Positions 1 to 21,446 of a stretch of 23,165 nucleotides of DNA are shown one piece after another. Location of the stretch: the IMG/VR virus record IMGVR_UViG_2585427789_000019. One strand, given 5' to 3'. The notes under the pieces are model-generated. The model worked only from the letters and a program-made list of their open reading frames with translations, did not search any database and was not told the origin of the DNA. Both the position numbers and the translations under genes were made by a program. Position 1 is the first letter of the stretch. Each line of letters starts with the position of its first letter. Source of the stretch: a virus (lineage: Duplodnaviria; Heunggongvirae; Uroviricota; Caudoviricetes).

Positions 1-275
1 CAGCGTTTCCGCCATTTCTTCCTGAAGTGCGCTGATTCGCTCCTGTGCTTCCTGTATCTGCCGTTCGGTTTTAGCGCGAAGTTTTTCTGAGCTTTTACCG
101 AACTGCATGCGCTGCAGTTTCGCAACCAGCGCCTTCAGCCGGTTGATTTCGGAAGCATAAGCCGCCACCCGCTGTGAGAGCAGGCGGTTGTATTTCGCCA
201 TCTGGCGGATGGTGTCCTGTTGCGTCTGCAACAGTGCCCGCAGGCGGGCATTCTCATGAGCAAGTGAGGTGTCCA
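1..275 (-). CDS. tnpC: IS66-family transposase TnpC, N-terminal portion only (gene runs off window edge)
   Basis: Minus-strand translation from the ATG at 275..273 gives MDTSLAHENARLRALLQTQQDTIRQMAKYNRLLSQRVAAYASEINRLKALVAKLQRMQFGKSSEKLRAKTERQIQEAQE..., the leucine-zipper N-terminus typical of IS66 transposases; the frame is open to position 1. Confidence 0.75.
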
Positions 276-295
276 TATCCTCACTTTACAACGGG

Positions 296-643
296 TTATA
301 TGCGGATGCCAGCGCGTTCCGTTCGTTTCGGGTGCTTCCAGTCGATGCCTTCGAGAAGCATGGACAACTGAGCCGGAGTAAGGTGAACCTTTCCATCGCG
401 GGTGACCGGCCAGACGAAGCGGCCCCGCTCCAGGCGTTTGGTGAAGAGGCACAGTCCGTCACTGTCAGCCCACAGCACTTTTATCTGGTCACCCCGGCGT
501 CCGCGGAAGATGAACAGATGCCCGGAGAACGGGTCATCCTTCAGGACGTTCTGAACTTTTGAGGCCAGGCCGTTAAAGCCATTTCGCATATCGGTGATAC
601 CGGCAACCAGCCAGATACGCGAACCGGCAGGGAGAGATATCAT
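296..643 (-). CDS. tnpB: IS66-family TnpB (Orf2) accessory protein
   Basis: 115 aa (MISLPAGSRIWLVAGITDMRNGFNGLASKVQ...), the characteristic size and sequence of IS66 Orf2; its start overlaps the tnpA stop (ATGA). Confidence 0.8.
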   Translation of the reverse strand: MISLPAGSRIWLVAGITDMRNGFNGLASKVQNVLKDDPFSGHLFIFRGRRGDQIKVLWADSDGLCLFTKRLERGRFVWPVTRDGKVHLTPAQLSMLLEGIDWKHPKRTERAGIRI

Positions 644-1293
644 CAGTGGCTGCTCCCTTTCATTTCGCGGATAAGTGTCTGTAATAACGCCGGTGTCAGT
701 TCACCTTTCAGCCTGAGAGTTCCGGCCGGCAGAACCAGCTCGCAGCACAGACTGTCTGGCAGTGTATTTATCTGTTCAGGTATCTGCACTGGTGCCGGGA
801 TTTTATTATCCGGCTCCGGAGTTAACGTCACGGGAAGTAGCGATGTTTCATGTTCGCCGGGCGGTTGCAGGCCACCGTTACGCCAGAGATGCCGCCAGTT
901 AAAGAGCAGGTTATCGTTAATTCCATTCTCTCGAGCTATTTGTGCGACACAGGCACCGGGTAAAAGAGTTTGCTGAACCAGTCTCCATTTAAACTCCGGT
1001 GAAAATCGGTTCCGGCGGGGTTTCTCTGCTTTCACAGGCTGAGTCACGGTCGGGGCTGAAGGGTATCGCCCCGGGAAAAGAGCCCGGGCCAGTTGCCCGC
1101 AGGAATATTCACCGGAAAGAGGCCAGTCAGTGAATACCTGGTGAAATCGCCTCACCAGAGAAAAAATGGCGGTTTTGCTGACACCAGTCTGCGCAGAAAT
1201 GCGCGGGTACGACAGTGACTCGTCAAATCTCAGCTGTAGCACACGCAGGATCAATTCTGGATTATCTGCCAGTACCGCTTTTCGTGCATTCAT
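643..1293 (-). CDS. tnpA: IS66-family TnpA (helix-turn-helix accessory protein); true start may be internal
   Basis: 216-aa ORF with an IS3/IS66-type HTH segment (RFSPEFKWRLVQQTLLPGACVAQIARENGINDNLLFNWRHL) directly upstream of and coupled to tnpB. Confidence 0.65.
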   Translation of the reverse strand: MNARKAVLADNPELILRVLQLRFDESLSYPRISAQTGVSKTAIFSLVRRFHQVFTDWPLSGEYSCGQLARALFPGRYPSAPTVTQPVKAEKPRRNRFSPEFKWRLVQQTLLPGACVAQIARENGINDNLLFNWRHLWRNGGLQPPGEHETSLLPVTLTPEPDNKIPAPVQIPEQINTLPDSLCCELVLPAGTLRLKGELTPALLQTLIREMKGSSH

Positions 1294-1379
1294 CTTAAAT
1301 GTCCTTTTACTGCGAAAATGGACATTAGTATCGGAAACAGGAAAGGGAGGCGAAAGACGGTTTAAATGATGCGCTTACC

Positions 1380-2251
1380 ATCTTCCTGACCGCAGGCGTT
1401 GATGTTCCATCTGCTCGCTTAGCCGCCTTGGTATGTACAAACACCCATTTGTGATGCTTGCCTATTTGATCACGCAACACTTTACAGGCGGTATCGTTCA
1501 GCGCCACACCAATGGCGCGGTTTGATTTGCTCTCTTCTGGATTCACCCAGGCAACTCGTCGCTGCATGTCGATTTGTTGCCATTCCAGATTTATGATGTT
1601 CGACTTTCTCAGACCAGTTGCCAGCGCAAACTTGACGACAGATTTCAGTGGTTCGGGGCACTCATCAATAAGGCGTTTTGCTTCCTCCTTTTCCAGCCAT
1701 CTGACTCGCTTGTTTCTGACCGCTGGTATCTTGATGACAGGCGCTTTTTCCAGCCACTTCCAGTCGCGTTCTGCAGCACGGAGAATGGCCTTTCTCATGG
1801 CAAGATGCTTTGCCTTTGTCTGAGTTGGTACTGGCTTTGGTTCATAAACAGGCAGTTCTTTACCTTTCCTGATGGCGGCCTGAACTTTCTGTTTCCATAT
1901 TTCTTTCGTCTTTCTGTTATGCATTCTGCTTACAGCAGAGTAAATCTTTGCCTCCGAGATATCTTTAAGCCTTATACCCTCAAAATGTTCAAGCCAGAAC
2001 TCAATCCGGCTTTTATCTGAATCGAGAGATTTTTTATCAGCTTTTTCCTCAAGCCATCTTAGGCAGGCCTCTTCAAAAGTGACATCAGGTAAATCCCCTA
2101 GCTTTTCTACTCGCCAGAGTTCTGCTTTTCGCTTGTCGTGCAACTCCTGAGCTTGCCGCTTGTCCTTTGTGCCAAGAGATTCCTTAATTCGTTTCCCGCC
2201 CGGGAGCGAATACGAGGCATACCATATTTCATTTCTGCGGAAGAGTGACAT
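1380..2251 (-). pseudogene. intD: Lambdoid prophage tyrosine integrase, 3' end truncated by IS66-family insertion
   Basis: N-terminal about 290 codons read as a phage integrase ([46 protein letters not shown]...) including the box I arginine region ([18 protein letters not shown]). The C-terminal catalytic box II (H-x-x-R ... Y) is absent; beyond about codon 291 the frame reads IS-derived sequence. Confidence 0.8.
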
Positions 2252-2478
2252 TTTCTTTCCTCTGTTATGCCATCACCCGCGCTCACCTGGACAGTATGCA
2301 GCGGAGACTGAAGCGCCGCAATGCAGGCTTGCCGTGTTGTGAGGTAAGGAGATTTTGGCTTGGTTGGATCTTTACGTGTTGCCTGTAGGCGGCCTGTTCG
2401 TATCCAGTTGGTGGCGGTTGGTCTGGATATCTTAAGAAACTGACAGGCCTCATCGAGTGTGAGGCTGTATGATTCCAT
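2107..2478 (-). CDS. xis: Excisionase (AlpA/Xis-type HTH), 3' end overlapping the integrase start
   Basis: ATG at 2478 with upstream aggtaa; [57 protein letters not shown]... contains an excisionase-type HTH. The 123-codon length and long overlap with int are unusual, so the 3' end is uncertain. Confidence 0.55.
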
Positions 2479-2728
2479 GGTTACCTCTGCTTTTTGAACG
2501 CATGTCACGTAACTTCTTAATGTGTTCTGCCGTTTCGATCTCTTCTGCTATCCGATCTGCATCAGCTTTATTCACAGGTTCAAAGTCATGATTAAAGCGG
2601 AACATGCTGGCGATACATGTTCTGCCTTTTCGGATGTAGTGAACTTTGTTGTGGGTAGAACGCAGGATTTTGCAGGGAGTGCCGTGGTGGTCGACGTACC
2701 AGGTGTTAGGCAAAATGATTCTGAACAT
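2450..2728 (-). CDS. Hypothetical prophage early-left protein (92 aa)
   Basis: ATG at 2728 preceded by a GAGGTG Shine-Dalgarno; same orientation as the xis/int operon; no family recognised. Confidence 0.5.
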   Translation of the reverse strand: MFRIILPNTWYVDHHGTPCKILRSTHNKVHYIRKGRTCIASMFRFNHDFEPVNKADADRIAEEIETAEHIKKLRDMRSKSRGNHGIIQPHTR

Positions 2729-2775
2729 TTTTACACCTCAGTTGGACGATGTTGAAATTTGCTGCTTTGAGGCCA

Positions 2776-2994
2776 TCACAATCCCCATTGTTTGTTCTTA
2801 AGTTCGATCTCCTCCTGGCAGCTTGCACAAGTCCGACAACCCTGAACGGCCAGGCGTCTTCGTTCATCTATGGGATCGCCACACTCACAACAATGAGTGG
2901 CAGATATAACCTGGTGGTTCAGACGACGCATTTTTATTGCTGTATTGCGCTGTAATTCTTCGATTTCTGATGCTGAATCAATGATGTCTGCCAT
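2776..2994 (-). CDS. TraR/DksA-family C4 zinc-finger protein (72 aa)
   Basis: MADIIDSASEIEELQRNTAIKMRRLNHQVISATHCCECGDPIDERRRLAVQGCRTCASCQEEIE... has paired CxxC motifs and an acidic N-terminal helix as in phage TraR-like proteins. Confidence 0.6.
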   Translation of the reverse strand: MADIIDSASEIEELQRNTAIKMRRLNHQVISATHCCECGDPIDERRRLAVQGCRTCASCQEEIELKNKQWGL

Positions 2995-3043
2995 CTTCCA
3001 TTAATCCCTGAATTGTTGGTTAATACGCTTGAGGGTGAATGCG

Positions 3044-3070
3044 AATAATAAAAAAGGAGCCTGTAGCTCC
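3044..3070 (-). terminator. Candidate intrinsic terminator inside the early-left operon
   Basis: On the minus strand, stem ggagc/gctcc (3056..3070, loop ctgta) is followed by a U-run (complement of aataataaaaaa at 3044..3055), between the 71-aa ORF and the TraR-like gene. Confidence 0.4.
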
Positions 3071-3092
3071 CTGATGATTTTGCTTTTCATGT

Positions 3093-3308
3093 TCATCGCT
3101 CCTTAAAGACGCCGTTTAACATGCCGATCGCCAGGCTTAAATGAGTCGGTGTGAATCCCATCAGCGTTACCGTTTCGCGGTGCTTCTTCAGTACGCTACG
3201 GCAAATGTCATCGACGTTTTTATCCGGAAACTGCTGTCTGGCTTTTTTGATTTCAGAATTAGCCTGACGGGCTATGCTGCGAAGGGCGTTTTCCTGCTGA
3301 GGTGTCAT
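3093..3308 (-). CDS. Hypothetical protein (71 aa from ATG at 3308; the six-frame track extends it to a TTG at 3407)
   Basis: MTPQQENALRSIARQANSEIKKARQQFPDKNVDDICRSVLKKHRETVTLMGFTPTHLSLAIGMLNGVFKER; its ATG overlaps the stop of the upstream 27-codon ORF (ATGA). Confidence 0.45.
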   Translation of the reverse strand: MTPQQENALRSIARQANSEIKKARQQFPDKNVDDICRSVLKKHRETVTLMGFTPTHLSLAIGMLNGVFKER

Positions 3309-3388
3309 TGAACAAGTCCCATGTCGGCAAGCATAAGCACACAGAATATGAAGCCCGCTGCCAGAAAAATGCATTCCGTGGTTGTCAT
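3305..3388 (-). CDS. Candidate small hydrophobic peptide (27 aa), coupled between the methyltransferase remnant and the 71-aa ORF
   Basis: Minus strand atgacaaccacggaatgcatttttctggcagcgggcttcatattctgtgtgcttatgcttgccgacatgggacttgttcaatga translates to MTTTECIFLAAGFIFCVLMLADMGLVQ; ATGA overlaps at both ends. No Shine-Dalgarno of its own, so this is speculative. Confidence 0.3.
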   Translation of the reverse strand: MTTTECIFLAAGFIFCVLMLADMGLVQ

Positions 3389-3750
3389 GCAGCCTCCCGA
3401 CGGGCAAGAATCCTTGAGCCGAACGCCATCAACTCTCCACGATCAACGGTCGTAAAGTGGCAGTGTGTACGGGGGTATGGGTGCCAGATAATGAGCATCG
3501 AGCCTTTATTATTTCCACTGACGTGTTTCCCGGTGAGTGGGTTAATAAATGCCAGTCGTCCTGCCGTGATGAATCTGACCTCACTGGCGGTTTGTATCGC
3601 TTCATGAAACCATCCGACAGATGTGTCAGCAGGTAATAACATTACACATCCCACACTGCTGAATTTGTTTTCAGTGGCTGCCTTTTTCACAAAAGGGGAA
3701 ATATTGCTGTATGGTGGATTCAACCAGACATAACCAGAGGCATATCCCAT
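3385..3750 (-). CDS. Phage Dam-type N6-adenine DNA methyltransferase, N-terminally truncated remnant
   Basis: WLNPPYS (N6-adenine MTase motif IV) lies at residues 9 to 15, followed by VMLLPADTSVGWFHEAI and VRFITAGRLAFINP as in the phage Dam family; the expected N-terminal SAM-binding region is missing and there is no Shine-Dalgarno before the ATG at 3750. Confidence 0.55.
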   Translation of the reverse strand: MGYASGYVWLNPPYSNISPFVKKAATENKFSSVGCVMLLPADTSVGWFHEAIQTASEVRFITAGRLAFINPLTGKHVSGNNKGSMLIIWHPYPRTHCHFTTVDRGELMAFGSRILARREAA

Positions 3751-3997
3751 TGCTTACTGGTTGGTTACCAACTTGTACCAGAACATGCGGGCCAATGCGC
3801 TGACTGACGCGGAATTACGGCGCAAGGCTGCCGATGAACTGTCCTGTATGACCGCGCGAATTAACCGTGGTGAGGCGATACCTGAACCAGTAAAACAACT
3901 TCCTGTCATGGGCGGTAGACCTCTAAATCGTGCACAGGCTCTGGCGAAGATCGCAGAAATCAAAGCTAAGTTCGGACTGAAAGGATCAAGTGTATGA
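3751..3997 (+). pseudogene. peaD: Replication protein P, C-terminal fragment
   Basis: Frame reads ...LVTNLYQNMRANALTDAELRRKAADELSCMTARINRGEAIPEPVKQLPVMGGRPLNRAQALAKIAEIKAKFGLKGSSV, matching the C-terminus of lambda P as I recall it; no N-terminal part and no ATG start; stop overlaps the ren ATG as in lambda. Confidence 0.75.
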
Positions 3998-4296
3998 CGG
4001 GCAAAGAGGCAATTATTCATTACCTGGGGACGCATAAGAGCTTCTGTGCACAGGACGTTGCCGCGGTAACAGGTGCAACCGTAACCAGCATAAATCAGGC
4101 TGCGGCTAAAATGGCGCGGGCAGGAATCCTGGTCGTTGATGGTAAGGTCTGGCGAACGGTGTATTACCGGTTCGCTACCAGAGAAGAACGGGAAGGAAAG
4201 GTGAGCACGAATCTGATTTTTAAGGAGTGTCGCCAGAGTGCCGCGATGAAACGGGTACTGAGGGTATATAAAAGAACATCAATGGGAACACAATGA
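3994..4296 (+). CDS. renD: Ren-like protein
   Basis: MTGKEAIIHYLGTHKSFCAQDVAAVTGATVTSINQAAAKMARAGILVVDGKVWRTVYYRFATREEREGK... matches lambda Ren; ATG at 3994 overlaps the P stop (ATGA). Confidence 0.8.
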   Translation: MTGKEAIIHYLGTHKSFCAQDVAAVTGATVTSINQAAAKMARAGILVVDGKVWRTVYYRFATREEREGKVSTNLIFKECRQSAAMKRVLRVYKRTSMGTQ

Positions 4297-4363
4297 TGAA
4301 ACAGGTGAGTTGAGTTCAAACTGTAGTACAATTCTCTCCCGTTTGAACAGGAAAGAATATGCT

Positions 4364-4696
4364 ATGAACCCTTATATTTATCTTGGTGGTGCAATACTTG
4401 CAGAGGTCATTGGTACAACCTTAATGAAGTTTTCAGAAGGTTTTACACGGTTATGGCCATCTGTTGGTACAATTATTTGTTATTGTGCATCATTCTGGTT
4501 ATTAGCTCAGACGCTGGCTTATATTCCTACAGGGATTGCTTATGGTATCTGGTCAGGAGTCGGTATTGTCCTGATTAGCTTACTGTCATGGGGATTTTTC
4601 GGCCAACGGCTGGACCTGCCAGCCATTATAGGCATGATGTTGATTTGTGCCGGTGTGTTGGTTATTAATTTATTGTCACGAAGCACACCACATTAA
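4364..4696 (+). CDS. emrE: Small multidrug resistance (SMR) efflux transporter EmrE
   Basis: 110 aa from the ATG at 4364 (aggaaag Shine-Dalgarno upstream): MNPYIYLGGAILAEVIGTTLMKFSEGFTRLWPSVGTIICYCASFWLLAQTLAYIPTGIAYGIWSGVGIVLISLLSWGFFGQRLDLPAIIGMMLICAGVLVINLLSRSTPH, four TM helices including the conserved membrane Glu. Confidence 0.9.
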   Translation: MNPYIYLGGAILAEVIGTTLMKFSEGFTRLWPSVGTIICYCASFWLLAQTLAYIPTGIAYGIWSGVGIVLISLLSWGFFGQRLDLPAIIGMMLICAGVLVINLLSRSTPH

Positions 4697-4726
4697 AATA
4701 ATTTGTTTCTAAACGACTAAAATATG

Positions 4727-4769
4727 GAGGCTCTTATATTTATATGAGCCTCGTTTTATGCTTTTTGTT
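4727..4769 (+). terminator. Intrinsic terminator downstream of emrE
   Basis: Stem gaggctc (4728..4734) / gagcctc (4746..4752) with an AT loop, followed by gttttatgctttttgtt. Confidence 0.55.
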
Positions 4770-4950
4770 AATGTCTTTATTTTTTATGTATTCTTTTGTG
4801 CTTTCAAGATTATGGCGTAAGAAAATTGCAATACGATTATTGTTGTATATTCAAGATAATGTGACCTTAATTGTCTTTTTAAATAAAAATTAAACAAAAA
4901 TTATATCCCACCACTAAGGTTTATAAAAGCATACGTTAGCAGGTGTCACC

Positions 4951-6477
4951 ATGAAAAAAGCCATAGCATATATGCGATTTTCATCACCAGGTCAGATGTC
5001 TGGCGACTCATTAAACCGACAGAGAAGACTTATTGCTGAATGATTAAAGGTAAATAGTGATTATTATCTTGATACCATAACATATGAAGATTTAGGATTA
5101 AGTGCATTCAAAGGAAAGCATGCACAATCAGGAGCTTTTTCGGAATTTTTAGATGCTATAGAGCATGGTTATATATTGCCAGGAACTACATTGTTAGTTG
5201 AAAGTCTGGACAGACTTTCAAGAGAAAAAGTCGGTGAAGCGATTGAACGTCTGAAATTGATTTTGAATCACAGTATTGATGTTATAACTCTTTGCGACAA
5301 TACAGTCTATAATATTGACTCTTTGAATGAGCCATATTCATTAATAAAAGCCATACTTATAGCACAAAGGGCAAATGAAGAAAGCGAGATAAAGTCAAGT
5401 CGGGTTAAATTATCATGGAAGAAAAAACGGCAGGATGCACTGGAATCAGGTACGATTATGACGGCGTCTTGTCCGAGATGGCTCTCCTTAGATGACAAAA
5501 GAACGGCTTTTGTTCCAGACCCCGACAGGGTGAAAACTATTGAGCTAATTTTTAAACTCAGGATGGAAAGGCGCTCATTGAATGCAATAGCCAAGTATTT
5601 AAATGATCATGCTGTAAAGAATTTCTCAGGAAAAGAAAGTGCATGGGGACCTTCTGTAATTGAAAAATTATTAGCGAATAAAGCTCTGATAGGTATATGC
5701 GTACCTTCATATCGTGCAAGAGGGAAAGGGATAAGTGAAATCGCTGGCTATTATCCCAGAGTCATATCAGATGATTTGTTTTACGCTGTACAGGAAATTC
5801 GGTTGGCACCTTTTGGTATTAGCAATAGTAGCAAGAATCCTATGCTAATAAATCTACTTCGAACAGTTATGAAGTGTGAGGCTTGTGGTAATACCATGAT
5901 TGTTCATGCGGTATCTGGAAGTTTGCATGGCTATTATGTTTGTCCGATGAGAAGATTACATCGATGTGACAGGCCATCAATAAAAAGAGATTTGGTTGAT
6001 TATAATATCATTAATGAATTGCTTTTTAATTGTAGCAAAATTCAACCAGTTGAAAACAAGAAAGATGCTAATGAAACTTTAGAGTTAAAAATTATTGAGC
6101 TTCAGATGAAAATTAATAATTTAATCGTTGCATTGTCTGTCGCGCCTGAAGTTACCGCTATAGCAGAGAAAATAAGACTATTAGATAAGGAATTACGAAG
6201 GGCTTCGGTATCATTGAAAACTTTGAAGAGTAAAGGTGTAAATTCATTCAGTGATTTTTATGCTATTGACTTAACCAGTAAAAATGGACGAGAGTTATGC
6301 CGTACACTTGCCTATAAAACATTCGAAAAAATCATAATTAATACGGATAATAAAACCTGTGATATCTATTTTATGAATGGCATTGTTTTTAAACACTATC
6401 CTTTAATGAAAGTAATATCCGCCCAGCAGGCGATAAGTGCTCTCAAATATATGGTTGATGGTGAGATTTATTTCTAA
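4951..6477 (+). pseudogene. ybcK: Serine recombinase YbcK-like, interrupted by an in-frame TGA at codon 31 (5041..5043)
   Basis: ATG at 4951 with aggtg Shine-Dalgarno gives MKKAIAYMRFSSPGQMSGDSLNRQRRLIAE, then TGA, then the same frame continues LKVNSDYYLDTITYEDLGLSAFKGKHAQSGAFSEFLDAIEHGYILPGTTLLVESLDRLSREK... to 6477 (508 codons if read through). The N-terminal piece carries the resolvase-type catalytic serine motif (YMRFSS..Q). Confidence 0.75.
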
Positions 6478-6858
6478 ATAATGATCTCGGATTTTAAGTT
6501 ATGCTATGGTGATAAAGTGCAAGACAGAATTAATTATCTTTGACGAAACTTAATGGGTAATTACTTTGTTTGCTCCCACAAGCGAGTTTTGTACGGCTGT
6601 ATTGGGGTAGTAAATGAGCTATACAATCTTAATCATTTGTTAGGTGAGAACTCTTGGTCGCAGATTCAAATACTGAAAATACGTGACAAATTATTATGAG
6701 CAAAATGGTGTATGTCACGTATTTTGAATGGTAGGTTAAAAAATAACACCGACTTTCGTAGGTATTACTAATAATAAAGCAGAGTTTTTAGATAGTATCA
6801 ATGTGCTTTGTGTATATTGTGGCAAATAATTGGGTTGGGGGTACAATTGTGATTGCTT

Positions 6859-6888
6859 TTGCATGAACATTGCGCCTTTATGCATAAT
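6859..6888 (+). promoter_or_regulatory. Candidate sigma70 promoter for ybcL
   Basis: TTGCAT (6859..6864), 18-bp spacer, CATAAT (6883..6888) preceded by TG, about 55 bp upstream of the ybcL ATG; pattern match only. Confidence 0.3.
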
Positions 6889-6941
6889 GAGATAAAGGAA
6901 TATCAAATAAAATAACGATAGGTCATAACAAAGAGGTTTTT

Positions 6942-7493
6942 ATGAAAACACTTATCGTTTCAACTGTATTGGCATTCATAACATTTTCTGCGCAGGCTGC
7001 AGCATTTCAGGTCACTAGTAATGAAATAAAAACAGGAGAGCAACTTACAACGTCTCATGTCTTTTCTGGATTTGGGTGTGAAGGTGGTAATACATCGCCC
7101 TCATTAACCTGGTCTGGTGTTCCTGAAGGTACCAAAAGCTTTGCCGTAACTGTATATGATCCAGATGCACCTACAGGCAGTGGTTGGTGGCATTGGACTG
7201 TTGTTAATATTCCAGCAACAGTAACATATTTGCCCGTTGATGCAGGGAGACGTGATGGAACAAAACTGCCGACTGGTGCTGTTCAAGGCCGAAATGATTT
7301 TGGCTATGCTGGGTTTGGTGGCGCATGTCCTCCTAAAGGAGATAAACCACATCATTACCAGTTTAAAGTATGGGCTCTAAAAACTGAAAAGATTCCTGTA
7401 GATTCTAACTCCAGCGGAGCGTTAGTTGGTTATATGCTTAATGCTAATAAAATCGCAACCGCTGAGATAACACCAGTTTATGAGATAAAGTAG
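6942..7493 (+). CDS. ybcL: Secreted PEBP/RKIP-family (UPF0098) protein YbcL
   Basis: 183 aa with an N-terminal signal peptide (MKTLIVSTVLAFITFSAQA) and PEBP-like motifs (DPDAP, HHY); aagagg Shine-Dalgarno before the ATG at 6942. Confidence 0.9.
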   Translation: MKTLIVSTVLAFITFSAQAAAFQVTSNEIKTGEQLTTSHVFSGFGCEGGNTSPSLTWSGVPEGTKSFAVTVYDPDAPTGSGWWHWTVVNIPATVTYLPVDAGRRDGTKLPTGAVQGRNDFGYAGFGGACPPKGDKPHHYQFKVWALKTEKIPVDSNSSGALVGYMLNANKIATAEITPVYEIK

Positions 7494-7502
7494 GGTGAGA
7501 GT

Positions 7503-8300
7503 ATGCTGGCAAGAGGTAAGACTAACTTAAAGATCGAAGAAATACGGATGCATAAACATCATGAGATTCATAGGGTTAAGCCTCTTATGCCAGCTTTGTG
7601 TCGTATCCGTCAGGGAAAGAAAGTTATCAATTGGGAGACGCATACTTTAACTGTTGATAATAATCAAATAATATTATTTCCTTGTGGTTATGAATTTTAT
7701 ATTGAGAATTATCCTGAAGCAGGGCTTTATCTTGCAGAAATGCTTTACTTACCCATTGATTTAATTGAGAGTTTCCAAAAACTTTATACGGTAACTGATC
7801 AAATACGTAACAAAACAAGTTTCTTTTTACCTCAGAATCCTGAGTTAATATATTGTTGGGAGCAACTAAAAACATCTGTTTCCCGAGGCTTCTCAACTAA
7901 AATTCAGGAGCACTTAGCAATGGGCGTTCTACTTTCGTTAGGAGTGAATCATGTTAATCATTTACTTTTATCATATAGTAAACAATCATTGATAAGTCGT
8001 TGTTATAACCTGCTGCTATCCGAACCCGGCACAAAATGGACAGCAAACAAGGTTGCTCGATATCTCTACATTTCTGTTTCTACATTACATCGCCGTCTAG
8101 CAAGCGAGGGGGTAAGTTTCCAAAGTATACTGGACGATGTGAGGTTAAATAATGCGTTGTCTGCTATACAAACGACGGTAAAACCTATAAGCGAGATTGC
8201 CAGAGAAAATGGTTATAAGTGTCCTTCTCGTTTTACTGAAAGATTTCATAATCGTTTTAATATAACACCAAGAGAGATAAGAAAAGCTTCCAGAGAGTAA
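7503..8300 (+). CDS. ybcM: AraC/XylS-family transcriptional regulator YbcM
   Basis: 265 aa with a C-terminal AraC-type HTH ([45 protein letters not shown]...[31 protein letters not shown]). Confidence 0.85.
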
Positions 8301-8416
8301 AAGTGTTTTAAGAAGGAGCAATTCTATCGATTTTGATTTTGGGAAATCAACACGGCATAATTATGTCACCGGAGCCTGAACAACTCCGGTGACTTCTGCG
8401 CTAAACGGGGACGTTT

Positions 8417-8518
8417 ATGCGCACATACAATCCAAACTCTCTTCTCCCTTCACAGATGCAGAAATGCACCTGCAATTCTTTGCATCTAGCGTTTGACCTC
8501 TGCGGAGGTGAAGCGTGA
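8417..8518 (+). CDS. ylcH: Small nin-region protein YlcH (33 aa)
   Basis: ATG at 8417; [33 protein letters not shown]; stop overlaps the ybcN GTG start. Recognised from DLP12 gene order as I recall it. Confidence 0.55.
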
Positions 8519-8970
8519 ACCTCTCACAAGACGGCATCAAATTACATCGCGGCAACTTCACCGCTATCGGTCGGCAGATCCAGCCTTATCTGGAGGAGGG
8601 CAAATGCTTTCGCATGGTGCTTAAACCGTGGCGTGAGAAACGCAGTCTTTCCCAGAATGCACTCAGCCACATGTGGTACAGCGAAATCAGTGAATACCTC
8701 ATCAGCAGGGGTAAAACGTTCGCCACTCCAGCTTGGGTAAAAGATGCTCTCAAACACACATATCTCGGTTATGAAACCAAAGACCTGGTTGATGTCGTAA
8801 CCGGTGATATCACCACTATCCAGTCGTTACGCCATACCTCCGACCTTGATACCGGAGAGATGTATGTCTTCCTGTGTAAGGTTGAAGCCTGGGCGATGAA
8901 TATTGGCTGCCACCTGACTATTCCGCAGAGCTGCGAGTTCCAGCTGCTGCGTGATAAGCAGGAGGCGTAA
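8515..8970 (+). CDS. ybcN: YbcN (nin-region protein, reported DNA base-flipping activity)
   Basis: 151 aa from the GTG at 8515 ([61 protein letters not shown]...), in the expected position before ninE. Confidence 0.8.
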
Positions 8971-9140
8971 TGGCTACACCGCTTATTCGTGTCATGAACG
9001 GACACATCTACAAAGTACCAAATCGTCGTAAGCGTAAGCCTGAGCTGAAACCATCCGAAATACCAACACTGCTCGGATATACCGCCAGCCTGGTTGATAA
9101 AAAATGGTTGCGACTGGCAGCAAGGAGGAATCATGGCTGA
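8970..9140 (+). CDS. ninE: NinE
   Basis: 56 aa, [56 protein letters not shown]; ATG overlaps the ybcN stop. Confidence 0.85.
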   Translation: MATPLIRVMNGHIYKVPNRRKRKPELKPSEIPTLLGYTASLVDKKWLRLAARRNHG

Positions 9141-9423
9141 TTTGAGAAAAGCAGCGCGTGGTCGGGAATGCCAGGTAAGAATCCCTGGCGTATGTAATGG
9201 CAATCCTGAAACGTCTGTACTGGCACATATCCGGCTGGCTGGATTGTGCGGTACCGGTATCAAACCGCCAGACCTGATTGCCACCATTGCATGTTCTGCC
9301 TGTCACGACGAGATCGACCGTCGCACGCATTTTGTTGACGCTGGATATGCAAAAGAATGCGCGCTGGAAGGTATGGCGAGAACGCAGGTTATCTGGCTGA
9401 AAGAGGGGGTAATTAAGGCGTGA
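9133..9423 (+). CDS. ybcO: YbcO (nin-region putative nuclease, Cys/His-rich)
   Basis: 96 aa from the ATG at 9133 with ggagg Shine-Dalgarno: [67 protein letters not shown]... Confidence 0.8.
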
Positions 9424-9782
9424 ATACCTACAATATCACATTACCCTGGCCGCCGAGCAATAATCGCTATTACCGCCATAATCGCGGGCGCACGCACATC
9501 AGCGCAGAGGGGCAGGCATACCGCGAAAACGTCGCCCGAATCATTAAAAACGCAATGCTGGATATCGGCCTGGCTATGCCTGTGAAAATCCGCATTGAGT
9601 GTCACATGCCGGATCGCCGTCGCCGTGACCTGGATAATCTACAAAAGGCCGCTTTTGACGCACTCACCAAAGCAGGTTTCTGGCTGGATGATGCTCAGGT
9701 CGTTGATTACCGCGTTGTGAAGATGCCGGTTGTCAAAGGTGGAAAGCTGGAACTGACCATCACTGAACAGGGAGATGAATGA
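9420..9782 (+). CDS. rusA: Holliday-junction resolvase RusA
   Basis: 120 aa from the GTG at 9420 ([97 protein letters not shown]...) with RusA catalytic Asp residues. Confidence 0.9.
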
Positions 9783-9919
9783 TGTTTGAGTTTTATATGG
9801 CAGAACTTCTTCGCCACCGCTGGATGCGCCTGCGCTTATATCGTTTCCCCGGTTCTGTTTTGACCGATTACCGAATACTGAAGAATTACGCCAAAACACT
9901 GACAGGAGCAGGAGTATGA
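9779..9919 (+). CDS. ylcG: Small nin-region protein YlcG (46 aa)
   Basis: [46 protein letters not shown]; ATG overlaps the rusA stop. Confidence 0.55.
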
Positions 9920-10004
9920 AGTCAGAGATAACAATCAACTAATACTGTTTTGTTGATTTTTGCTTGTAATTGGCGTTCTGGTCTGAGTTTTGTGGAGTAA
10001 GTTG

Positions 10005-10388
10005 ATGCGTGATATTCAGATGGTTCTTGAGCGTTGGGGAGCGTGGGCGGCTAATAATCATGAAGATGTGACCTGGTCGTCCATTGCCGCCGGTTTTAAG
10101 GGATTAATTCCTTCAAAAGTAAAATCTCGCCCACAATGTTGTGACGATGACGCGATGATCATTTGCGGGTGCATGGCCCGTCTGAAAAAGAACAACAGCG
10201 ATTTGCATGATTTATTAGTAGATTATTATGTAGTCGGTATGACATTCATGTCACTGGCAGGTAAGCATTGCTGCTCTGATGGTTATATCGGGAAAAGGTT
10301 ACAGAAGGCTGAGGGCATAATTGAAGGGATGTTAATGGCATTAGATATCCGGTTAGAGATGGATATCGTTGTTAATAACTCTAATTAA
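10005..10388 (+). CDS. quuD: Q-like late-gene antiterminator
   Basis: 127 aa from the ATG at 10005 (ggag Shine-Dalgarno at 9994): [62 protein letters not shown]..., Cys-rich zinc-binding region typical of Q proteins, positioned after the nin region. Confidence 0.85.
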
Positions 10389-10421
10389 TATGCCAATTGT
10401 TTACTAAAAATTATTAAAAAT

Positions 10422-10450
10422 GGGGCGTTGAGACGCCCCCAAAAATAAAG
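10422..10450 (-). terminator. Intrinsic terminator for the minus strand (likely nmpC)
   Basis: Perfect 7-bp GC stem ggggcgt/acgcccc (10422..10439, loop tgag); on the minus strand it is followed by AUUUUUAAUAAUUUUU. Confidence 0.55.
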
Positions 10451-10527
10451 GGTAATATATAACAGAAGGTTTATATAGTTAGAAGCAAGGTTGTGCTTCT
10501 AAAGGAAGTGGCTTGAGGGAGCCACTT

Positions 10528-10567
10528 ATATGTTGGGGAGGCAAAGCCTCCCGCAACATATCTTTTT
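10528..10567 (+). terminator. Intrinsic terminator for the plus strand (candidate tR'-like terminator downstream of quuD)
   Basis: Long hairpin atatgttggggaggc-aaa-gcctcccgcaacatat (10528..10561) followed by cttttt. Confidence 0.55.
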
Positions 10568-10577
10568 CGTAATCAGA

Positions 10578-11660
10578 TTAGAACTGATACACCAGACCTA
10601 CAGCGACGATGTCGTCGGTATCAATACCAGCTGTTTTGGTAAACTTACTATCGTCAATTAAGTTGATTTTGTAATCAACAAAAGTGGACATGTTTTTATT
10701 AAAGTAGTAAGTAGCACCGACATCGACATACTTGACTAAGTCTCGGTCACCATGAACACCAAGGTCTTTACCTTTTGACTGAAGGTAAGCAACAGATGGT
10801 CGCAGACCGAAGTCAAACTGATATTGTGCTACTGCTTCAAAGTTTTGTGCTTTGTTTGCAATATGGTTATTACCAAAAACGGTCATATTCTGAGTTTCAG
10901 AATATGTGGTAGCCAGATAGATATTGTTCGCATCATATTTCAGGCCTGCAGCCCATACTTCCGCATTTTTGCCGGAGGCATTGAATTTGCTCTTACCATA
11001 GGCGACCTGACCGTCAGTGCGATCTGATTTAGCATAGGTTGCACCCACGCCGAATCCTTCATACTCATAAGTAGTGGAGAAACCGAAACCATCACCATTG
11101 GCTTCAGTTACGTCAGTGCGGTCATTTTTACCCTGATACTGAGCAGCAAAGTTCAGGCCATCGACCAGACCAAAGAAGTCGTTGTTACGATAGGTTGCAA
11201 CACCAGTGGTGCGACCAGTCATGAACACATCTGTTTGGGTCCAGGTATCGCCACCGAATTCTGGCAGAACGTCAGTCCACGCACCGATGTCGTATGCTAC
11301 ACCGTAGTTACGGCCGTAATCGATTGAGCCGTAGTCACCGAATTTCAGGCCTGCAAATGCAAGACGGGTTTTGTCTTTGGAGGAACCTTGAGATTCAGCG
11401 CGGTTGCCTTTGAATTCATATTCCCACTGACCGAAACCAGTCAGTTGATCGTTGATTTGGGTTTCACCTTTGAAGCCAAGACGGGCATAAGTAGTATCAC
11501 CATCATCTGCATCGTTAGAGGAAAAGTAGTGCTTGGCATTAACTTTCCCGTACAGATCCAGCTTGTTACTGTCTTTATTATAAATTTCAGCTGCCTGAGC
11601 AGACATCGCCATCAGTACTGATGCAGCTACAGCAGAAATTGCCACTGTTAATTTTTTCAT
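10578..11660 (-). CDS. nmpC: OmpC/OmpF-family outer-membrane porin (NmpC-type), apparently intact
   Basis: 360 aa with signal peptide ([23 protein letters not shown]), porin beta-strand pattern and C-terminal ...VGLVYQF; uninterrupted reading frame. Confidence 0.9.
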
Positions 11661-12248
11661 CGTGAGCCCTTTTTTTTGAACTATTATTAAAAAATGATGT
11701 CACTGCGCGATAAATATTCATCTAATCAATGTGATTATTTCAAGATGTAAGTTTTAGTTTCTCATTTAATTTGTGAAGTAGATCTCTATTTTTATCTGAA
11801 CTTTTTCTATCGAAACCTATTTATGGCTCTTATTTGAACAAAAATAAACCTATTAGCTAATTTATATTAATGGCTGTTATTTATGGGGGTTCTATAATTC
11901 AGTGGTTTAATTTAAATCAACCAAAAATAACGCCGGAAATTATTTATTGGTTATTTGTTGAGGTTTTCTTATATATTTGTGGTGGTGTTTTGAACACTCG
12001 GTAGCATTCTCATAAATATCATTCAGTGGTTTACGTACGTAAAAAATTGGTTATGCTGTTAAGAGTGGTTACTTCGTCACACAGCTTAAACCCGCCGTCG
12101 AGCTGGTTTTTCCATTTTTTGAGTCTCGATATTAGCTGATAACTCAATACCTGAGTTATTCACTGACTCCGAGTCTGTTACGTTTCTGCTTTTTTGCGAT
12201 ACGTTGTATTCCCTCAATTTACACCCGCTTTGTCTGCGAGGTGGGGTT

Positions 12249-12464
12249 ATGAAATCCATGGATAAGTTAACAACGGGTGTCGCCTATGGCACCTCAGCAG
12301 GTAGTGCCGGTTACTGGTTTTTACAGCTGCTCGATAAAGTCACGCCCTCACAGTGGGCAGCAATAGGTGTGCTGGGTAGCCTGGTATTTGGCCTGCTGAC
12401 GTACCTGACAAACCTTTATTTCAAGATTAAAGAAGATAAGCGCAAGGCTGCGAGAGGTGAATAA
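12249..12464 (+). CDS. essD: Holin (phage 21 S-type pinholin)
   Basis: 71 aa from the ATG at 12249: [71 protein letters not shown]; two TM segments, immediately before the endolysin. Confidence 0.85.
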
Positions 12465-12961
12465 TGCCTCCATCATTACGAAAAGCCGTTGCTGCTGCTA
12501 TTGGTGGCGGAGCAATTGCTATAGCATCAGTGTTAATCACTGGCCCAAGTGGTAACGATGGTCTGGAAGGTGTCAGCTACATACCATACAAAGATATTGT
12601 TGGTGTATGGACTGTATGTCACGGGCATACAGGAAAAGACATCATGCTCGGTAAAACGTATACCAAAGCAGAATGCAAAGCCCTCCTGAATAAAGACCTT
12701 GCCACGGTCGCCAGACAAATTAACCCGTACATAAAAGTTGATATACCGGAAACAACGCGCGGCGCTCTTTACTCGTTCGTTTACAACGTGGGCGCTGGCA
12801 ATTTCAGAACATCGACGCTTCTTCGCAAAATAAACCAGGGCGATATCAAAGGCGCATGTGATCAGCTACGTCGCTGGACATATGCTGGCGGTAAGCAATG
12901 GAAAGGTCTCATGACTCGTCGTGAGATTGAGCGTGAAATCTGTTTGTGGGGTCAGCAATGA
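12464..12961 (+). CDS. rrrD: SAR endolysin (T4-lysozyme-type, phage 21 R-like)
   Basis: 165 aa; N-terminal Gly/Ala-rich signal-anchor-release segment ([20 protein letters not shown]) followed by a lysozyme catalytic region. Confidence 0.9.
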
Positions 12962-13419
12962 ACAGAGTAACCGCGATTATCTCCGCTCTGGTTATCTGCA
13001 TCATCGTCTGCCTGTCATGGGCTGTTAATCATTACCGTGATAACGCCATTACCTACAAAGCCCAGCGCGACAAAAATGCCAGAGAACTGAAGCTGGCGAA
13101 CGCGGCAATTACTGACATGCAGATGCGCCAGCGTGATGTTGCTGCACTGGATGAAAAATACACGAAGGAGTTAGCTAATGCGAAAGCTGAAAATGATGCT
13201 CTGCGTGATGATGTTGCCGCTGGTCGTCGTCGGTTGCACATCAAAGCAGTCTGTCAGTCAGTGCGTGAAGCCACCACCGCCTCCGGCGTGGATAATGCAG
13301 CCTCCCCCCGACTGGCAGACACCGCTGAACGGGATTATTTCACCCTCAGAGAGAGGCTGATCACTATGCAAAAACAACTGGAAGGAACCCAGAAGTATAT
13401 TAATGAGCAGTGCAGATAG
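12958..13419 (+). CDS. rzpD: Spanin, inner-membrane subunit (Rz)
   Basis: 153 aa from the ATG at 12958 (overlaps the rrrD stop); N-terminal TM helix then a coiled-coil periplasmic domain. Confidence 0.85.
13178..13360 (+). CDS. rzoD: Spanin, outer-membrane lipoprotein subunit (Rz1), embedded in rzpD in the +1 frame
   Basis: 60 aa, [24 protein letters not shown]... lipobox LVVVGC and proline-rich C-terminus ([15 protein letters not shown]). Confidence 0.8.
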
Positions 13420-13450
13420 AGCTGCCCATATCGATGGGCAACTCATGCAA

Positions 13451-13744
13451 TTATTGTGAGCAATACACACGCGCTTCCAGCGGAGTATAAATGCCTAAAG
13501 TAATAAAACCGAGCAATCCATTTACGAATGTTTGCTGGGTTTCTGTTTTAACAACATTTTCTGCGCCGCCACAAATTTTGGCTGCATCAACAGTTTTCTC
13601 CTGTCCAATTCCCGAAACGAAGAAGTGATGGGTGATGGTTTCCTTTGGTGTTACTGCTGTCGGTTTGTTTCCAACAGTAAACGTCTGTTGAGCACATCCT
13701 GTAATAAGCATTGCCAGAGCGGCAGAAAACAACATTTTTTTCAT
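13451..13744 (-). CDS. borD: Bor lipoprotein (serum-resistance family)
   Basis: 97 aa from the ATG at 13744: MKKMLFSAALAMLITGCAQQTFTVGNKPTAVTPKETITHHFFVSGIGQEKTVDAAKICGGAENVVKTETQQTFVNGLLGFITLGIYTPLEARVYCSQ; lipobox ITGC. Confidence 0.9.
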   Translation of the reverse strand: MKKMLFSAALAMLITGCAQQTFTVGNKPTAVTPKETITHHFFVSGIGQEKTVDAAKICGGAENVVKTETQQTFVNGLLGFITLGIYTPLEARVYCSQ

Positions 13745-14105
13745 CTTATTATCCTGCATTGTTAAAAACGGCAGAATCCTATGTGACAAAAATTAAACGA
13801 TAGTTAAATGGATTGATGAAAATTAAAACTATATAGGTGGATGCTCAGCCTATTGGAGGAGGGGGGGGCACTCAGAATCCTGTGGAATGAAATAAACCGC
13901 TCTTTCTGTCCATTACCCTTTTAGCTGCGCTGTATCGTCGCCGTATTCCCGCATTAACCATGACCGTAGCCCGACGGGGAATTCCTTCTGCGTGAGTGTG
14001 CGGGAATAATCAAAAACGATGCACACCGGGTTTTACTGTGCTGACAGACGCAGGGTTACCCTCATAGTCGCTTTTCCGGTGCGATGGTGGAAGAAACCGG
14101 GATGT

Positions 14106-14300
14106 TTATTCATCATCACTCTGGATTGATGTATATGCTCTCTTTTCTGACGTTAGTCTCCGACGGCAGGCTTCAATGACCCAGGCTGAGAAATTCCCAG
14201 ACCCTTTTTGCTCAAGAGCGATGTTAATTTGTTCAATCATTTGGTTAGGAAAGCGGATGTTGCGGGTTGTTGTTCTGCGGGTTCTGTTCTTAGTTGACAT
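14106..14300 (-). CDS. ylcI: Small ribbon-helix-helix-like protein (YlcI-like, 64 aa)
   Basis: MSTKNRTRRTTTRNIRFPNQMIEQINIALEQKGSGNFSAWVIEACRRRLTSEKRAYTSIQSDDE; basic N-terminus and RHH-like pattern. Gene symbol assigned from position and size as I recall them. Confidence 0.55.
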   Translation of the reverse strand: MSTKNRTRRTTTRNIRFPNQMIEQINIALEQKGSGNFSAWVIEACRRRLTSEKRAYTSIQSDDE

Positions 14301-14464
14301 GAGGTTGCCCCGTATTCAGTGTCGCTGATTTGTATTGTCTGAAGTTGTTTTTACGTTAAGTTGATGCAGATCAATTAATACGATACCTGCGTCATAATTG
14401 ATTATTTGACGTGGTTTGATGGCGTAGATGCACGTTGTGACATGTAGATGATAATTATTATCAT

Positions 14465-14690
14465 TTTGCGGGTCCTTTCCGGCGATCCGACAGGTTACGG
14501 GGCGGCGACCTCGCGGGTTTTCGCTATTTATGAAAATTTTCCGGTTTAAGGCATTTCCGTTCTTCTTCGTCGTAACTTAATGTTTTTATTTAAAATACCC
14601 CCTGAAAAGAAAGGAAACGACAGGTGCTGAAAACGAGCTTTTGGGCCTCTGTCGTTTCCTTTCTCTGTTTTTGGCCGTGGAATGAACAAT
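14465..14690. other. Lambda-type cohesive end site (cosQ-cosN-cosB)
   Basis: cgatccgacaggttacg followed by GGGCGGCGACCT (cosN, 14499..14510) and cgcgggttttcgctatttatgaaaattttccggtttaagg..., near-identical to the lambda right-end/left-end junction as I recall it, running into the Nu1 start. Confidence 0.75.
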
Positions 14691-15264
14691 GGAAGTCAAC
14701 AAAAAGCAGCTGGCTGACATTTTCGGTGCGAGTATCCGTACCATTCAGAACTGGCAGGAACAGGGAATGCCCGTTCTGCGAGGCGGTGGCAAGGGTAATG
14801 AGGTGCTTTATGACTCTGCCGCCGTTATAAGATGGTATGCCGAAAGGGATGCTGAAATTGAGAACGAAAAGCTGCGCCGGGAAGTTGAAGAACTGCGGCA
14901 GGCCAGCGAGACAGATCTCCAGCCAGGGACTATTGAGTACGAACGCCATCGACTTACGCGTGCGCAGGCCGACGCACAGGAGCTGAAAAATGCCAGAGAC
15001 TCCGCTGAAGTGGTGGAAACCGCATTCTGTACTTTCGTGCTGTCGCGGATCGCAGGTGAAATTGCCAGTATTCTCGACGGGATCCCCCTGTCGGTGCAGC
15101 GGCGTTTTCCGGAACTGGAAAACCGACATGTTGATTTCCTGAAACGGGATATCATCAAAGCCATGAACAAAGCAGCCGCGCTGGATGAACTGATACCCGA
15201 ACACGGCACTGGTCGGCGTGCAGGTGGACTCGGAGCAGTTCGGCAGCCAGCAGGTGAGCCGTAA
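14689..15264 (+). CDS. nohD: Terminase small subunit (Nu1 homologue) with a non-native C-terminal tail from a deletion junction
   Basis: [71 protein letters not shown]... matches lambda Nu1 through ...[14 protein letters not shown], then diverges ([21 protein letters not shown]) as the frame runs into J-derived DNA. Confidence 0.8.
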
Positions 15265-18040
15265 TTATCATCTTCGCGGGCGCATTCTGCAGGTGCCGTC
15301 GAACTATAACCCGCAGACGCGGCAATACAGCGGTATCTGGGACGGAACGTTTAAGCCGGCATACAGCAACAACCCGGCCTGGTGTCTGTGGGATATGCTG
15401 ACCCACCCGCGCTACGGCATGGGGAAACGTCTTGGTGCGGCGGATGTGGATAAATGGGCGCTGTATGTCATCGGCCAGTACTGCGACCAGTCAGTGCCGG
15501 ACGGTTTTGGCGGCACGGAGCCGCGCATCACCTGTAATGCCTACCTGACCACGCAGCGTAAGGCGTGGGATGTGCTCAGTGATTTCTGCTCGGCGATGCG
15601 CTGTATGCCGGTATGGAACGGGCAGACGCTGACGTTCGTGCAGGACCGACCATCAGATAAGGTGTGGACCTATAACCGCAGTAATGTGGTGATGCCGGAT
15701 GATGGCGCGCCGTTCCGCTACAGCTTCAGCGCCCTGAAGGACCGCCATAATGCCGTTGAGGTGAACTGGATTGACCCGAATAACGGCTGGGAGACGGCGA
15801 CAGAGCTTGTTGAAGATACGCAGGCCATTCTCCGTTACGGTCGTAACGTCACGAAGATGGATGCCTTTGGCTGTACCAGCCGGGGGCAGGCACACCGCGC
15901 CGGGCTGTGGCTGATTAAAACGGAGCTGCTGGAAACGCAGACCGTGGACTTCAGCGTGGGTGCCGAAGGGCTTCGCCATGTACCGGGCGATGTCATTGAA
16001 ATCTGCGATGATGACTATGCCGGTATCCGCACCGGCGGGCGCGTGCTGGCGGTAAACAGCCAGACCCGGACGCTGACGCTCGACCGTGAAATCACGCTGC
16101 CATCTTCCGGCACCACGCTGATAAGCCTGGTTGACGGGCAGGGGAGTCCGGTCAGCGTGGAGGTTCAGTCCGTCACCGACGGCGTGAAGGTGAAAGTGAG
16201 CCGTGTTCCTGACGGCGTTGCTGAATACAGCGTATGGGGGCTGAAGCTGCCGACGTTGCGCCAGCGCCTGTTCCGCTGCGTGAGTATCCGTGAGAACGAC
16301 GACGGCACGTATGCCATCACCGCCGTGCAGCATGTACCGGAAAAAGAGGCCATCGTGGATAACGGGGCGCACTTTGACGGCGACCAGAGCGGCACGGTAA
16401 ATGGTGTCACGCCGCCAGCGGTGCAGCACCTGACCGCAGAAGTCACCGCAGACAGCGGGGAATACCAGGTGCTGGCCCGCTGGGATACGCCGAAGGTGGT
16501 GAAGGGCGTGAGCTTCCTGCTTCGCCTGACCGTGGCAGCGGATGACGGCCGTGAGCGACTGGTCAGCACGGCCCGGACGACGGAAACCACTTACCGCTTC
16601 ACACAACTGGCTCTGGGGAACTACAGGCTGACAGTCCGGGCAGTAAATGCGTGGGGGCAGCAGGGCGAGCCGGCGTCGGTATCGTTCCGGATTGCCGCAC
16701 CGGCAGCGCCGTCGCAGATTGAGCTGACACCGGGGTATTTTCAGATAACCGCCACGCCGCATCTTGCGGTTTATGATCCGACGGTACAGTTTGAGTTCTG
16801 GTTCTCGGAAAAGCGGATTGCGGATATCAGGCAGGTTGAAACCACAGCACGCTATCTTGGCACGGCGCTGTACTGGATAGCCGCCAGTATCAATATCAAA
16901 CCGGGCCATGATTATTATTTTTACATCCGCAGTGTGAACACCGTTGGCAAATCGGCATTCGTGGAGGCTGTTGGCCAGCCGAGTGATGATGCATCCGGCT
17001 ATCTGAATTTTTTCAAAGGAGAGATAGGGAAAACCCATCTGGCTCAGGAGTTGTGGACGCAGATTGATAACGGTCAGCTTGCGCCTGACCTGGCGGAAAT
17101 CAGAACGTCCATCACGGATGTCAGTAATGAAATCACGCAGACCGTCAATAAGAAACTGGAAGACCAGAGTGCGGCAATCCAGCAGATACAGAAGGTTCAG
17201 GTTGATACAAATAATAACCTGAACAGCATGTGGGCTGTGAAGCTGCAGCAGATGCAGGACGGACGCCTTTATATCGCGGGTATTGGTGCCGGTATTGAGA
17301 ATACCCCTGACGGTATGCAGAGTCAGGTGCTGCTGGCGGCGGACAGGATTGCGATGATTAATCCTGCGAATGGCAACACAAAGCCGATGTTTGTTGGTCA
17401 GGGCGATCAGATATTCATGAACGAAGTGTTCCTGAAATATCTGACGGCTCCCACCATTACCAGCGGCGGTAATCCTCCGGCATTTTCCCTGACACCGGAC
17501 GGGCGGCTGACGGCGAAAAATGCCGATATTAGCGGTAACGTGAATGCGAACTCCGGGACGCTCAACAACGTCACGATTAACGAGAACTGCCGGGTTCTGG
17601 GAAAACTGTCCGCGAACCAGATTGAAGGCGATCTCGTTAAAACAGTGGGCAAAGCTTTCCCCCGGGACTCCCGTGCACCGGAGCGGTGGCCATCAGGGAC
17701 CATTACCGTCAGGGTTTATGACGATCAGCCGTTTGACCGGCAAATTGTTATTCCGGCGGTGGCATTCAGTGGCGCTAAACATGAGCAAGATCATACTGAT
17801 ATCTACTCCTCATGCCGTCTGATAGTACGAAAAAACGGTGCTGAAATTTATAACCGAACGGCTCTGGATAATACGCTGATATATACGGGTGTTATTGATA
17901 TGCCTGCAGGCAGTGGTGTAATGACACTGGAATTTTCTGTATCGGCATGGCTGGTAAATGGCTGGTATCCCACAGCAAGTATCAGCGATTTGCTGGTTGT
18001 GGTGATGAAGAAAGCCACTGCAGGCATCATGATTAGCTGA
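15218..18040 (+). CDS. J: Tail-tip host-specificity protein J, N-terminally truncated fragment (about 940 codons); probably a non-functional remnant
   Basis: ...[108 protein letters not shown]... matches internal lambda J sequence as I recall it; no native N-terminus or Shine-Dalgarno, and the frame opens at the nohD junction. Confidence 0.85.
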
Positions 18041-18059
18041 ATTTTATAACCCAGATACG

Positions 18060-18084
18060 GGCGCCAGAAATGGCGCCTTTTTTA
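18060..18084 (+). terminator. Intrinsic terminator after J
   Basis: Stem ggcgcca/tggcgcc with loop gaaa (18060..18077) followed by tttttt. Confidence 0.6.
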
Positions 18085-18098
18085 TTTGTGGAGTGAAT

Positions 18099-20444: not shown

Positions 20445-20722
20445 AAGATTTAACACTCAAATTTGCAGACAGGGCCGACTTTTCGGCCTTTATGGAGAGT
20501 ATTGGCTATTATGATGACGAGTCGATGCAGGATGATATTCTTATTGACGTGATAGGTAACGTGTACAAAGAAACCGGAGAACTGACTGAAGATGGCGAAC
20601 CGGTATGTGTTAAGGAAGACGGATATTTTGTAAACGTGCGCATCATTAATGATGTAAAAAAATCGTCAATATTCGATAAATACGCGGTTGTTGTTGAGCA
20701 TCAACTTCGTGGCTGGATGTGA
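20441..20722 (+). CDS. Hypothetical acidic protein (93 aa), translationally coupled to stf
   Basis: ATG at 20441 overlaps the stf stop (ATGA); MKDLTLKFADRADFSAFMESIGYYDDESMQDDILIDVIGNVYKETGELTEDGEPVCVKEDGYFVNV...; no family recognised. Confidence 0.5.
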   Translation: MKDLTLKFADRADFSAFMESIGYYDDESMQDDILIDVIGNVYKETGELTEDGEPVCVKEDGYFVNVRIINDVKKSSIFDKYAVVVEHQLRGWM

Positions 20723-20731
20723 GGGAGACAA

Positions 20732-21436: not shown

Positions 21437-21446
21437 AGGAGGAGTA

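Follow-up and report, generated by a model that had tools for sequence, protein, structure and literature searches.

A premature opal codon in the serine recombinase gene ybcK of a DLP12-type Escherichia coli prophage

The closest described counterpart of the gene studied here is ybcK (b0544, 'putative recombinase YbcK') of E. coli K-12 MG1655, which encodes an intact 508-aa protein and lies in the locus emrE-ylcJ-ybcK-ybcL-ybcM of the cryptic prophage DLP12, at argU. In K-12, a Rho-dependent terminator located in the leader holds expression of the gene low (PMC4150792), a situation consistent with weak selection. In BL21(DE3), overexpression of ybcK raises tolerance to sabinene and its deletion lowers it, according to one report (PMC7181518), so the intact gene may be of some use to its host. 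Beyond E. coli, the ancestral YbcK has the three-domain architecture of large serine recombinases such as PhiC31 Int, as well as residues of the serine-integrase type (R9, S11, D87-R88, R91 and four cysteines). Its sequence similarity to any solved structure is very low.

The window (the whole stretch of 23,165 nucleotides analysed here) has the same gene order as K-12 at this locus, and its ybcK is identical to that of K-12 at 1524 of 1527 nt, with the same start and stop. However, where K-12 has TGG (Trp31) and GGT (Gly108), the window has TGA and AGT. Unlike large serine recombinases such as PhiC31 Int, this copy is thus probably unable to make the enzyme. The sequence is not new in this respect: the ybcK of strain AST19 has the same W31* allele, is identical to the window across the whole gene and is already marked as a pseudogene in RefSeq. 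We conclude, with a probability of roughly 90%, that ybcK is here a recently inactivated gene, a W31* pseudogene in a decaying prophage. The features on which this reading bears are collected in Table 1.

Table 1. Positions, strands and supporting evidence for the features of the window.
Feature	Position	Strand	Evidence or remark
ybcK, large serine recombinase gene of a DLP12-type prophage, here probably a pseudogene	4951..6477	+	Translation; Pfam on the ancestral protein; PGAP
Ser11 codon, predicted catalytic nucleophile, Y7-x-R9-x-S11 motif	4981..4983	+	Family conservation; upstream of the stop
Premature stop TGA (W31*), G-to-A at 5043, next base T	5041..5043	+	TGG in K-12; genome probes
Longest residual in-frame ORF past the stop, from TTG codon 76, 433 aa	5176..6477	+	Lacks R9 and S11; no Shine-Dalgarno match
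Codon 108 AGT (Ser) for GGT (Gly), second substitution, at a family-invariant residue	5272..5274	+	K-12 comparison; carrier comparison
IS66-family element IS679	1..1378 (junction 1378/1379)	- for tnpA (643..1293) and tnpB (296..643)	
intD remnant (tyrosine integrase)	1379..2251	-	3' end removed by IS679

The ybcK frame and the protein it once encoded

Translated on the plus strand, the ybcK stretch gives 509 codons, with an ATG start, an in-frame TGA at codon 31 and a terminal TAA; from the ATG it reads MKKAIAYMRFSSPGQMSGDSLNRQRRLIAE*LKVNSDYY..., and the window holds no uninterrupted frame for the full enzyme. The same stretch has 54 and 56 internal stops in the other two frames, against one in the ybcK frame, and we therefore regard the latter as a real coding frame with one lesion and not as a chance ORF. 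The start codon and the coordinates agree with those of the annotated ybcK of K-12 MG1655. An ungapped, position-by-position comparison with the K-12 gene found 3 differences in 1527 nt: the G-to-A change that turns TGG (Trp) into TGA, the G-to-A change at 5272 that replaces Gly108 by Ser, and a synonymous change at 5697. A preliminary description of this DNA had read the gene as the serine recombinase ybcK, with a TGA at codon 31 in the context GCT GAA TGA TTA AAG, a YMRFSS motif upstream of it and a possible origin from TGG by one base change. All of these points agree with our results, including the position of the motif (residues 7-12) and the TGG of K-12; only its count of exactly 508 sense codons has to be corrected, since the frame contains 507 plus the TGA.

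The identity of the ancestral protein was assessed on YbcK of K-12, which has Trp at the TGA codon of the window and whose only other difference from the window's translation is at residue 108. Pfam profiles identified a Resolvase domain (PF00239, residues 4-161, E = 5.5e-19, 69.1 bits for a cutoff of 23.3), a Recombinase domain (PF07508, residues 191-284, E = 2.3e-14) and a zinc ribbon (PF13408, Zn_ribbon_recom, residues 302-357, E = 7.9e-8). By this predicted three-domain architecture, the ancestral YbcK is a large serine recombinase. The Resolvase profile aligns from its own first position at residue 4 of YbcK, and from the established Y-x-R-x-S motif of serine recombinases we take S11 to be the nucleophile. 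A search of PDB sequences with YbcK as a single sequence gave nothing at E <= 1e-3, and the profile of 27 sequences gave only weak matches to structures, namely PhiC31 integrase (E = 2e-4) and one structure of the resolvase family. Given the lack of a close structure, the mapping of the catalytic residues relies on Pfam and on conservation within the family.

This conservation was studied in an alignment of 27 homologues from Escherichia, Atlantibacter, Yersinia, Pantoea, Erwinia, Kluyvera, Citrobacter, Rhizobium and others, with identities down to 28%. R9, S11 and Q15 are nearly invariant (at least 90% conserved), S12 varies, and D87, R88, R91 and G108 are invariant throughout, as are the zinc-ribbon cysteines C309, C312, C331 and C339. 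All the active-site residues are still encoded in the window, where the stop cuts R9 and S11 off from the rest. Position 31 is occupied by Trp in the whole enterobacterial clade, and by Tyr in the homologues that are most distant. An N-terminus of the MKKAIAY type is common to all full-length homologues, from which we conclude that the gene normally begins at the ATG of the window's frame. The orthologues thus lack the TGA and share the N-terminus, and this speaks against a case that had been considered beforehand, that of a TGA shared by the orthologues, with a conserved start downstream of it.

Distribution and age of the stop codon

The ybcK stretch has matches in 1427 of the 5426 complete E. 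coli genomes. Using 61-base probes centred on codon 31, which matched 1190 of the complete genomes, we found the exact TGG version in 1164 and the exact TGA version in 9. These nine genomes correspond to five independent isolates: H1827/12 (country unrecorded), E100341 (Gambia), AST19 and AST205 (both from Japan) and EC0026B (UK), the last of which accounts for five of the nine through its laboratory derivatives. In all five isolates, the PGAP annotation gives ybcK as a pseudogene and notes an 'internal stop' (in EC0026B, in the one of the five derivative assemblies that was checked). W31* is therefore a real and rare nonsense mutation, confined to a few strains, for which we infer a single origin, in an ancestor shared by a small set of E. 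coli strains. Over positions 1379..23165 of the window (21.8 kb), AST19 differs by only 2 bases, at 4340 and 11922; the former lies 24 nt upstream of the start codon of emrE (4364). The window differs from all five pseudogene strains in having IS679 additionally inserted in intD.

The frequency and the recurrence of the allele also bear on whether the stop might be a sequencing or assembly error in a genome that truly reads TGG, an option raised in the preliminary description. The allele does differ from the common one by a single base, as such an error would. However, the site lies outside any homopolymer and the identical TGA occurs in nine complete RefSeq assemblies, from isolates that were sequenced independently, in different countries and projects. 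We thus set the error aside as exceedingly unlikely.

The codon is a sense codon in intact orthologues, differs from theirs by a single base and is a stop in a minority lineage, as expected of a nonsense pseudogene. In the scenario we favour, one G-to-A transition would have turned Trp31 into an opal stop in the common ancestor of the small strain group. Translation from the ATG would then end after 30 residues, giving a peptide that has Ser11 and nothing else of the enzyme; the full-length recombinase would be absent beyond traces made by readthrough, and ybcK would be drifting as a pseudogene within a prophage that is already defective. We infer that YbcK function was lost and that this loss was neutral. 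G108S aside, the rest of the ORF is undamaged, as one would expect of a young pseudogene; by itself, this is no proof of lost function. W31* is, in our reading, a case of ordinary gene decay.

The comparison of the carriers gives some indication of what followed the stop. G108S is present in the window, in AST19 and in EC0026B. It is absent from H1827/12, E100341 and AST205, whose pseudogenes have W31* alone. Since only part of the TGA carriers have it, G108S must have arisen after the stop. EC0026B has in addition S322C, so that the later substitutions within the TGA group are two, both non-synonymous and one of them at the invariant Gly108. Two events are weak evidence, but they fit relaxed constraint rather than a product maintained by readthrough.

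Other lesions of ybcK occur in E. coli. In strain B771 the gene is split by an insertion of IS2 (hit H10). Two E. coli clusters of 478 aa annotated as 'recombinase family protein' (P0002 and P0003) were considered as products of a downstream start; this was rejected, as their N-terminus is normal and their length reflects an in-frame deletion of 30 residues at the start of the Recombinase domain. W31* adds one more case of a cryptic prophage that loses genes by point mutation, beside IS insertions and deletions in the same element. In practical terms, the annotation of this genome should list ybcK as a pseudogene, the allele can be used to recognise a small E. coli group, and natural W31* strains could serve as ybcK knockouts in studies of the reported stress-tolerance phenotype.

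Readthrough, reinitiation and recoding

Among the alternatives to a pseudogene, the one that survives best is a leaky stop, in which readthrough by Trp-tRNATrp would yield full-length YbcK in an amount that is small yet matters biologically, the allele being attenuated rather than dead. In E. coli, Trp-tRNATrp competes with RF2 at UGA, and readthrough is the outcome of this competition (PMC10570021); UGA is the leakiest stop codon of this species, with a basal readthrough of about 1e-3 to 1e-2 (PMC4989110). The residue inserted by this tRNA would be the ancestral Trp31. A trace of full-length YbcK with its ancestral Trp (~0.1-1%) is accordingly expected, so that W31* may fall short of a strict null. 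Very few copies can be enough for a site-specific recombinase to act, which also speaks for this alternative.

Several observations argue against it. The stop is absent from 1181 of the 1190 genomes, which is not what a conserved regulatory design would give, and the conservation of the stop codon expected of programmed readthrough is not seen, since all the aligned homologues have a sense codon there. The AT-rich RNA that follows the stop (5041..5110) folds no better than its shuffled versions (minimum free energy of -7.4 kcal/mol, against -8.1 +/- 2.4 for the shuffles), and an Rfam scan of the whole window returned no family at the gathering score; hence there is no sign of a stimulatory structure after the UGA. 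The base that follows the UGA is U. According to what Poole, Brown and Tate reportedly found in 1995, this is the strongest termination context in E. coli; our literature search on the fourth-base effect on UGA termination in E. coli retrieved mammalian work only. In the sub-group of the window, the substitution at the invariant Gly108 means that a readthrough product would probably be impaired as well. Finally, expression is already low, owing to the Rho-dependent termination in the leader (PMC4150792), and the early stop would expose 1.4 kb of untranslated RNA to further action of Rho.

Taken with the evidence on both sides, a leaky stop of biological consequence seems improbable to us. The preliminary description had listed a leaky stop among its options; as a designed feature this is not supported, the allele being rare and the structure missing, and what is left is the generic low-level misreading of UGA. 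One can go further and imagine W31* as a functional hypomorph, with readthrough restoring the ancestral protein to about 0.1-1% of its normal level. Readthrough is known to vary from cell to cell and with the metabolic state, and it could then produce rare, stochastic bursts of YbcK recombinase activity in these strains. We give this idea little credence.

Reinitiation downstream of the stop, either at the TTG of codon 76 or at the ATG of codon 170, would make a truncated, non-catalytic DNA-binding factor that keeps the Recombinase and zinc-ribbon domains. An uninterrupted ORF of 433 codons does follow the TTG, the ATG (5458) is in frame, and some homologues in the databases (P0025 and P0032) are called from around residues 28-34. 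However, the TTG, the first in-frame restart candidate, has no Shine-Dalgarno match before it, and the ATG, the first in frame, is preceded only by the four nucleotides AGGT at a spacing of 3. The first candidate is also 132 nt past the stop, which is too far for efficient coupled reinitiation. Any such product would lack R9 and S11, both upstream of the stop, so the earlier remark that a reinitiated protein would miss the active site was right. The short database entries may themselves be damaged genes. Altogether, we consider reinitiation very unlikely. P0025 and P0032 are both from outside E. coli and their calls start without the catalytic N-terminus; this may reflect N-terminal damage or artefacts of gene calling.

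The last alternative, that the UGA is programmed as selenocysteine, has nothing in its favour other than an in-frame UGA, and can be dismissed given that position 31 of the orthologues is Trp or Tyr rather than Cys or Sec, that the fold and the Rfam scan gave no SECIS-like hairpin, and that the allele is rare. A SECIS element or a readthrough stimulator 3' of the UGA was in fact sought as a candidate feature and rejected on the comparison with the shuffles.

The prophage and YbcK homologues elsewhere

The pseudogene lies in a prophage that is itself defective. From position 1379 to its end, the window is collinear and virtually identical with the DLP12-type prophage of AST19, EC0026B, REL606 (where the ybcK codon is TGG), C and ATCC 8739. 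In the annotation of the nearest genome, AST19, the genes for a methyltransferase, replication protein P, the tail tip, the tail fibre and tail-fibre assembly are truncated. The integrase gene intD is intact at the same position in the closest genomes (AST19, EC0026B and REL606), so IS679 must be confined, at this site, to the source strain or its very near relatives.

The diverged YbcK homologues that we examined in Yersinia, Erwinia and Pantoea are all borne by prophages, in two kinds of position. In Erwinia (L010), the ybcK-like gene directly follows a tail-fibre assembly gene near the edge of the prophage, a position that is integrase-like; host genes, from lepA onward, lie some 1.4 kb downstream of it. 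In Yersinia, it is also downstream of the tail-fibre assembly gene, with an autotransporter gene in between. In DLP12, ybcK is found in the early/nin region and not at the prophage edge, and IntD serves this prophage as a tyrosine integrase of its own. The Pantoea gene (L012) resembles it in position, with replication genes on one side and the Q antiterminator on the other, in the early region. The existence of two positions is a hint that the copy in DLP12 may have been left over from another role.

Within the window, ybcK belongs to a low-GC island (~4250..8300, GC of 0.31-0.43 against about 0.48-0.53 in the flanks) that holds emrE, ylcJ, ybcK, ybcL and ybcM between the phage gene ren and genes of the nin region, and looks like foreign cargo inside the prophage. 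A scan of 3900..8700 for att-like repeats flanking the island gave only short two-copy matches at chance level. Over 4250..7000 we found 14 promoter-like sites, for an expectation of 11.4 +/- 3.4, and 1 terminator-like site, on the minus strand, for an expectation of 1.4; these counts are uninformative.

Elsewhere in the prophage, what is left of a DNA adenine methyltransferase gene, a 3' fragment, is joined directly to a 3' fragment of replication gene P (3385..3997, following the annotation of AST19). The small terminase gene (14689..15264) runs straight into an N-terminally truncated tail-tip gene (TipJ), so that the head genes and most tail genes are missing, and the tail-fibre gene is truncated as well (15194..20088, AST19 annotation). 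The arrangements at 3385..3997 and 15194..20088 are signs of large deletions in the prophage. The nearest genome has the bor-family lipoprotein gene (13451..13744, minus strand) under the name 'increased serum survival lipoprotein Iss'. The porin gene of the prophage (10578..11660, minus strand), called nmpC in K-12 and ompC by PGAP, is intact in the window, unlike its K-12 MG1655 counterpart, which IS5 splits.
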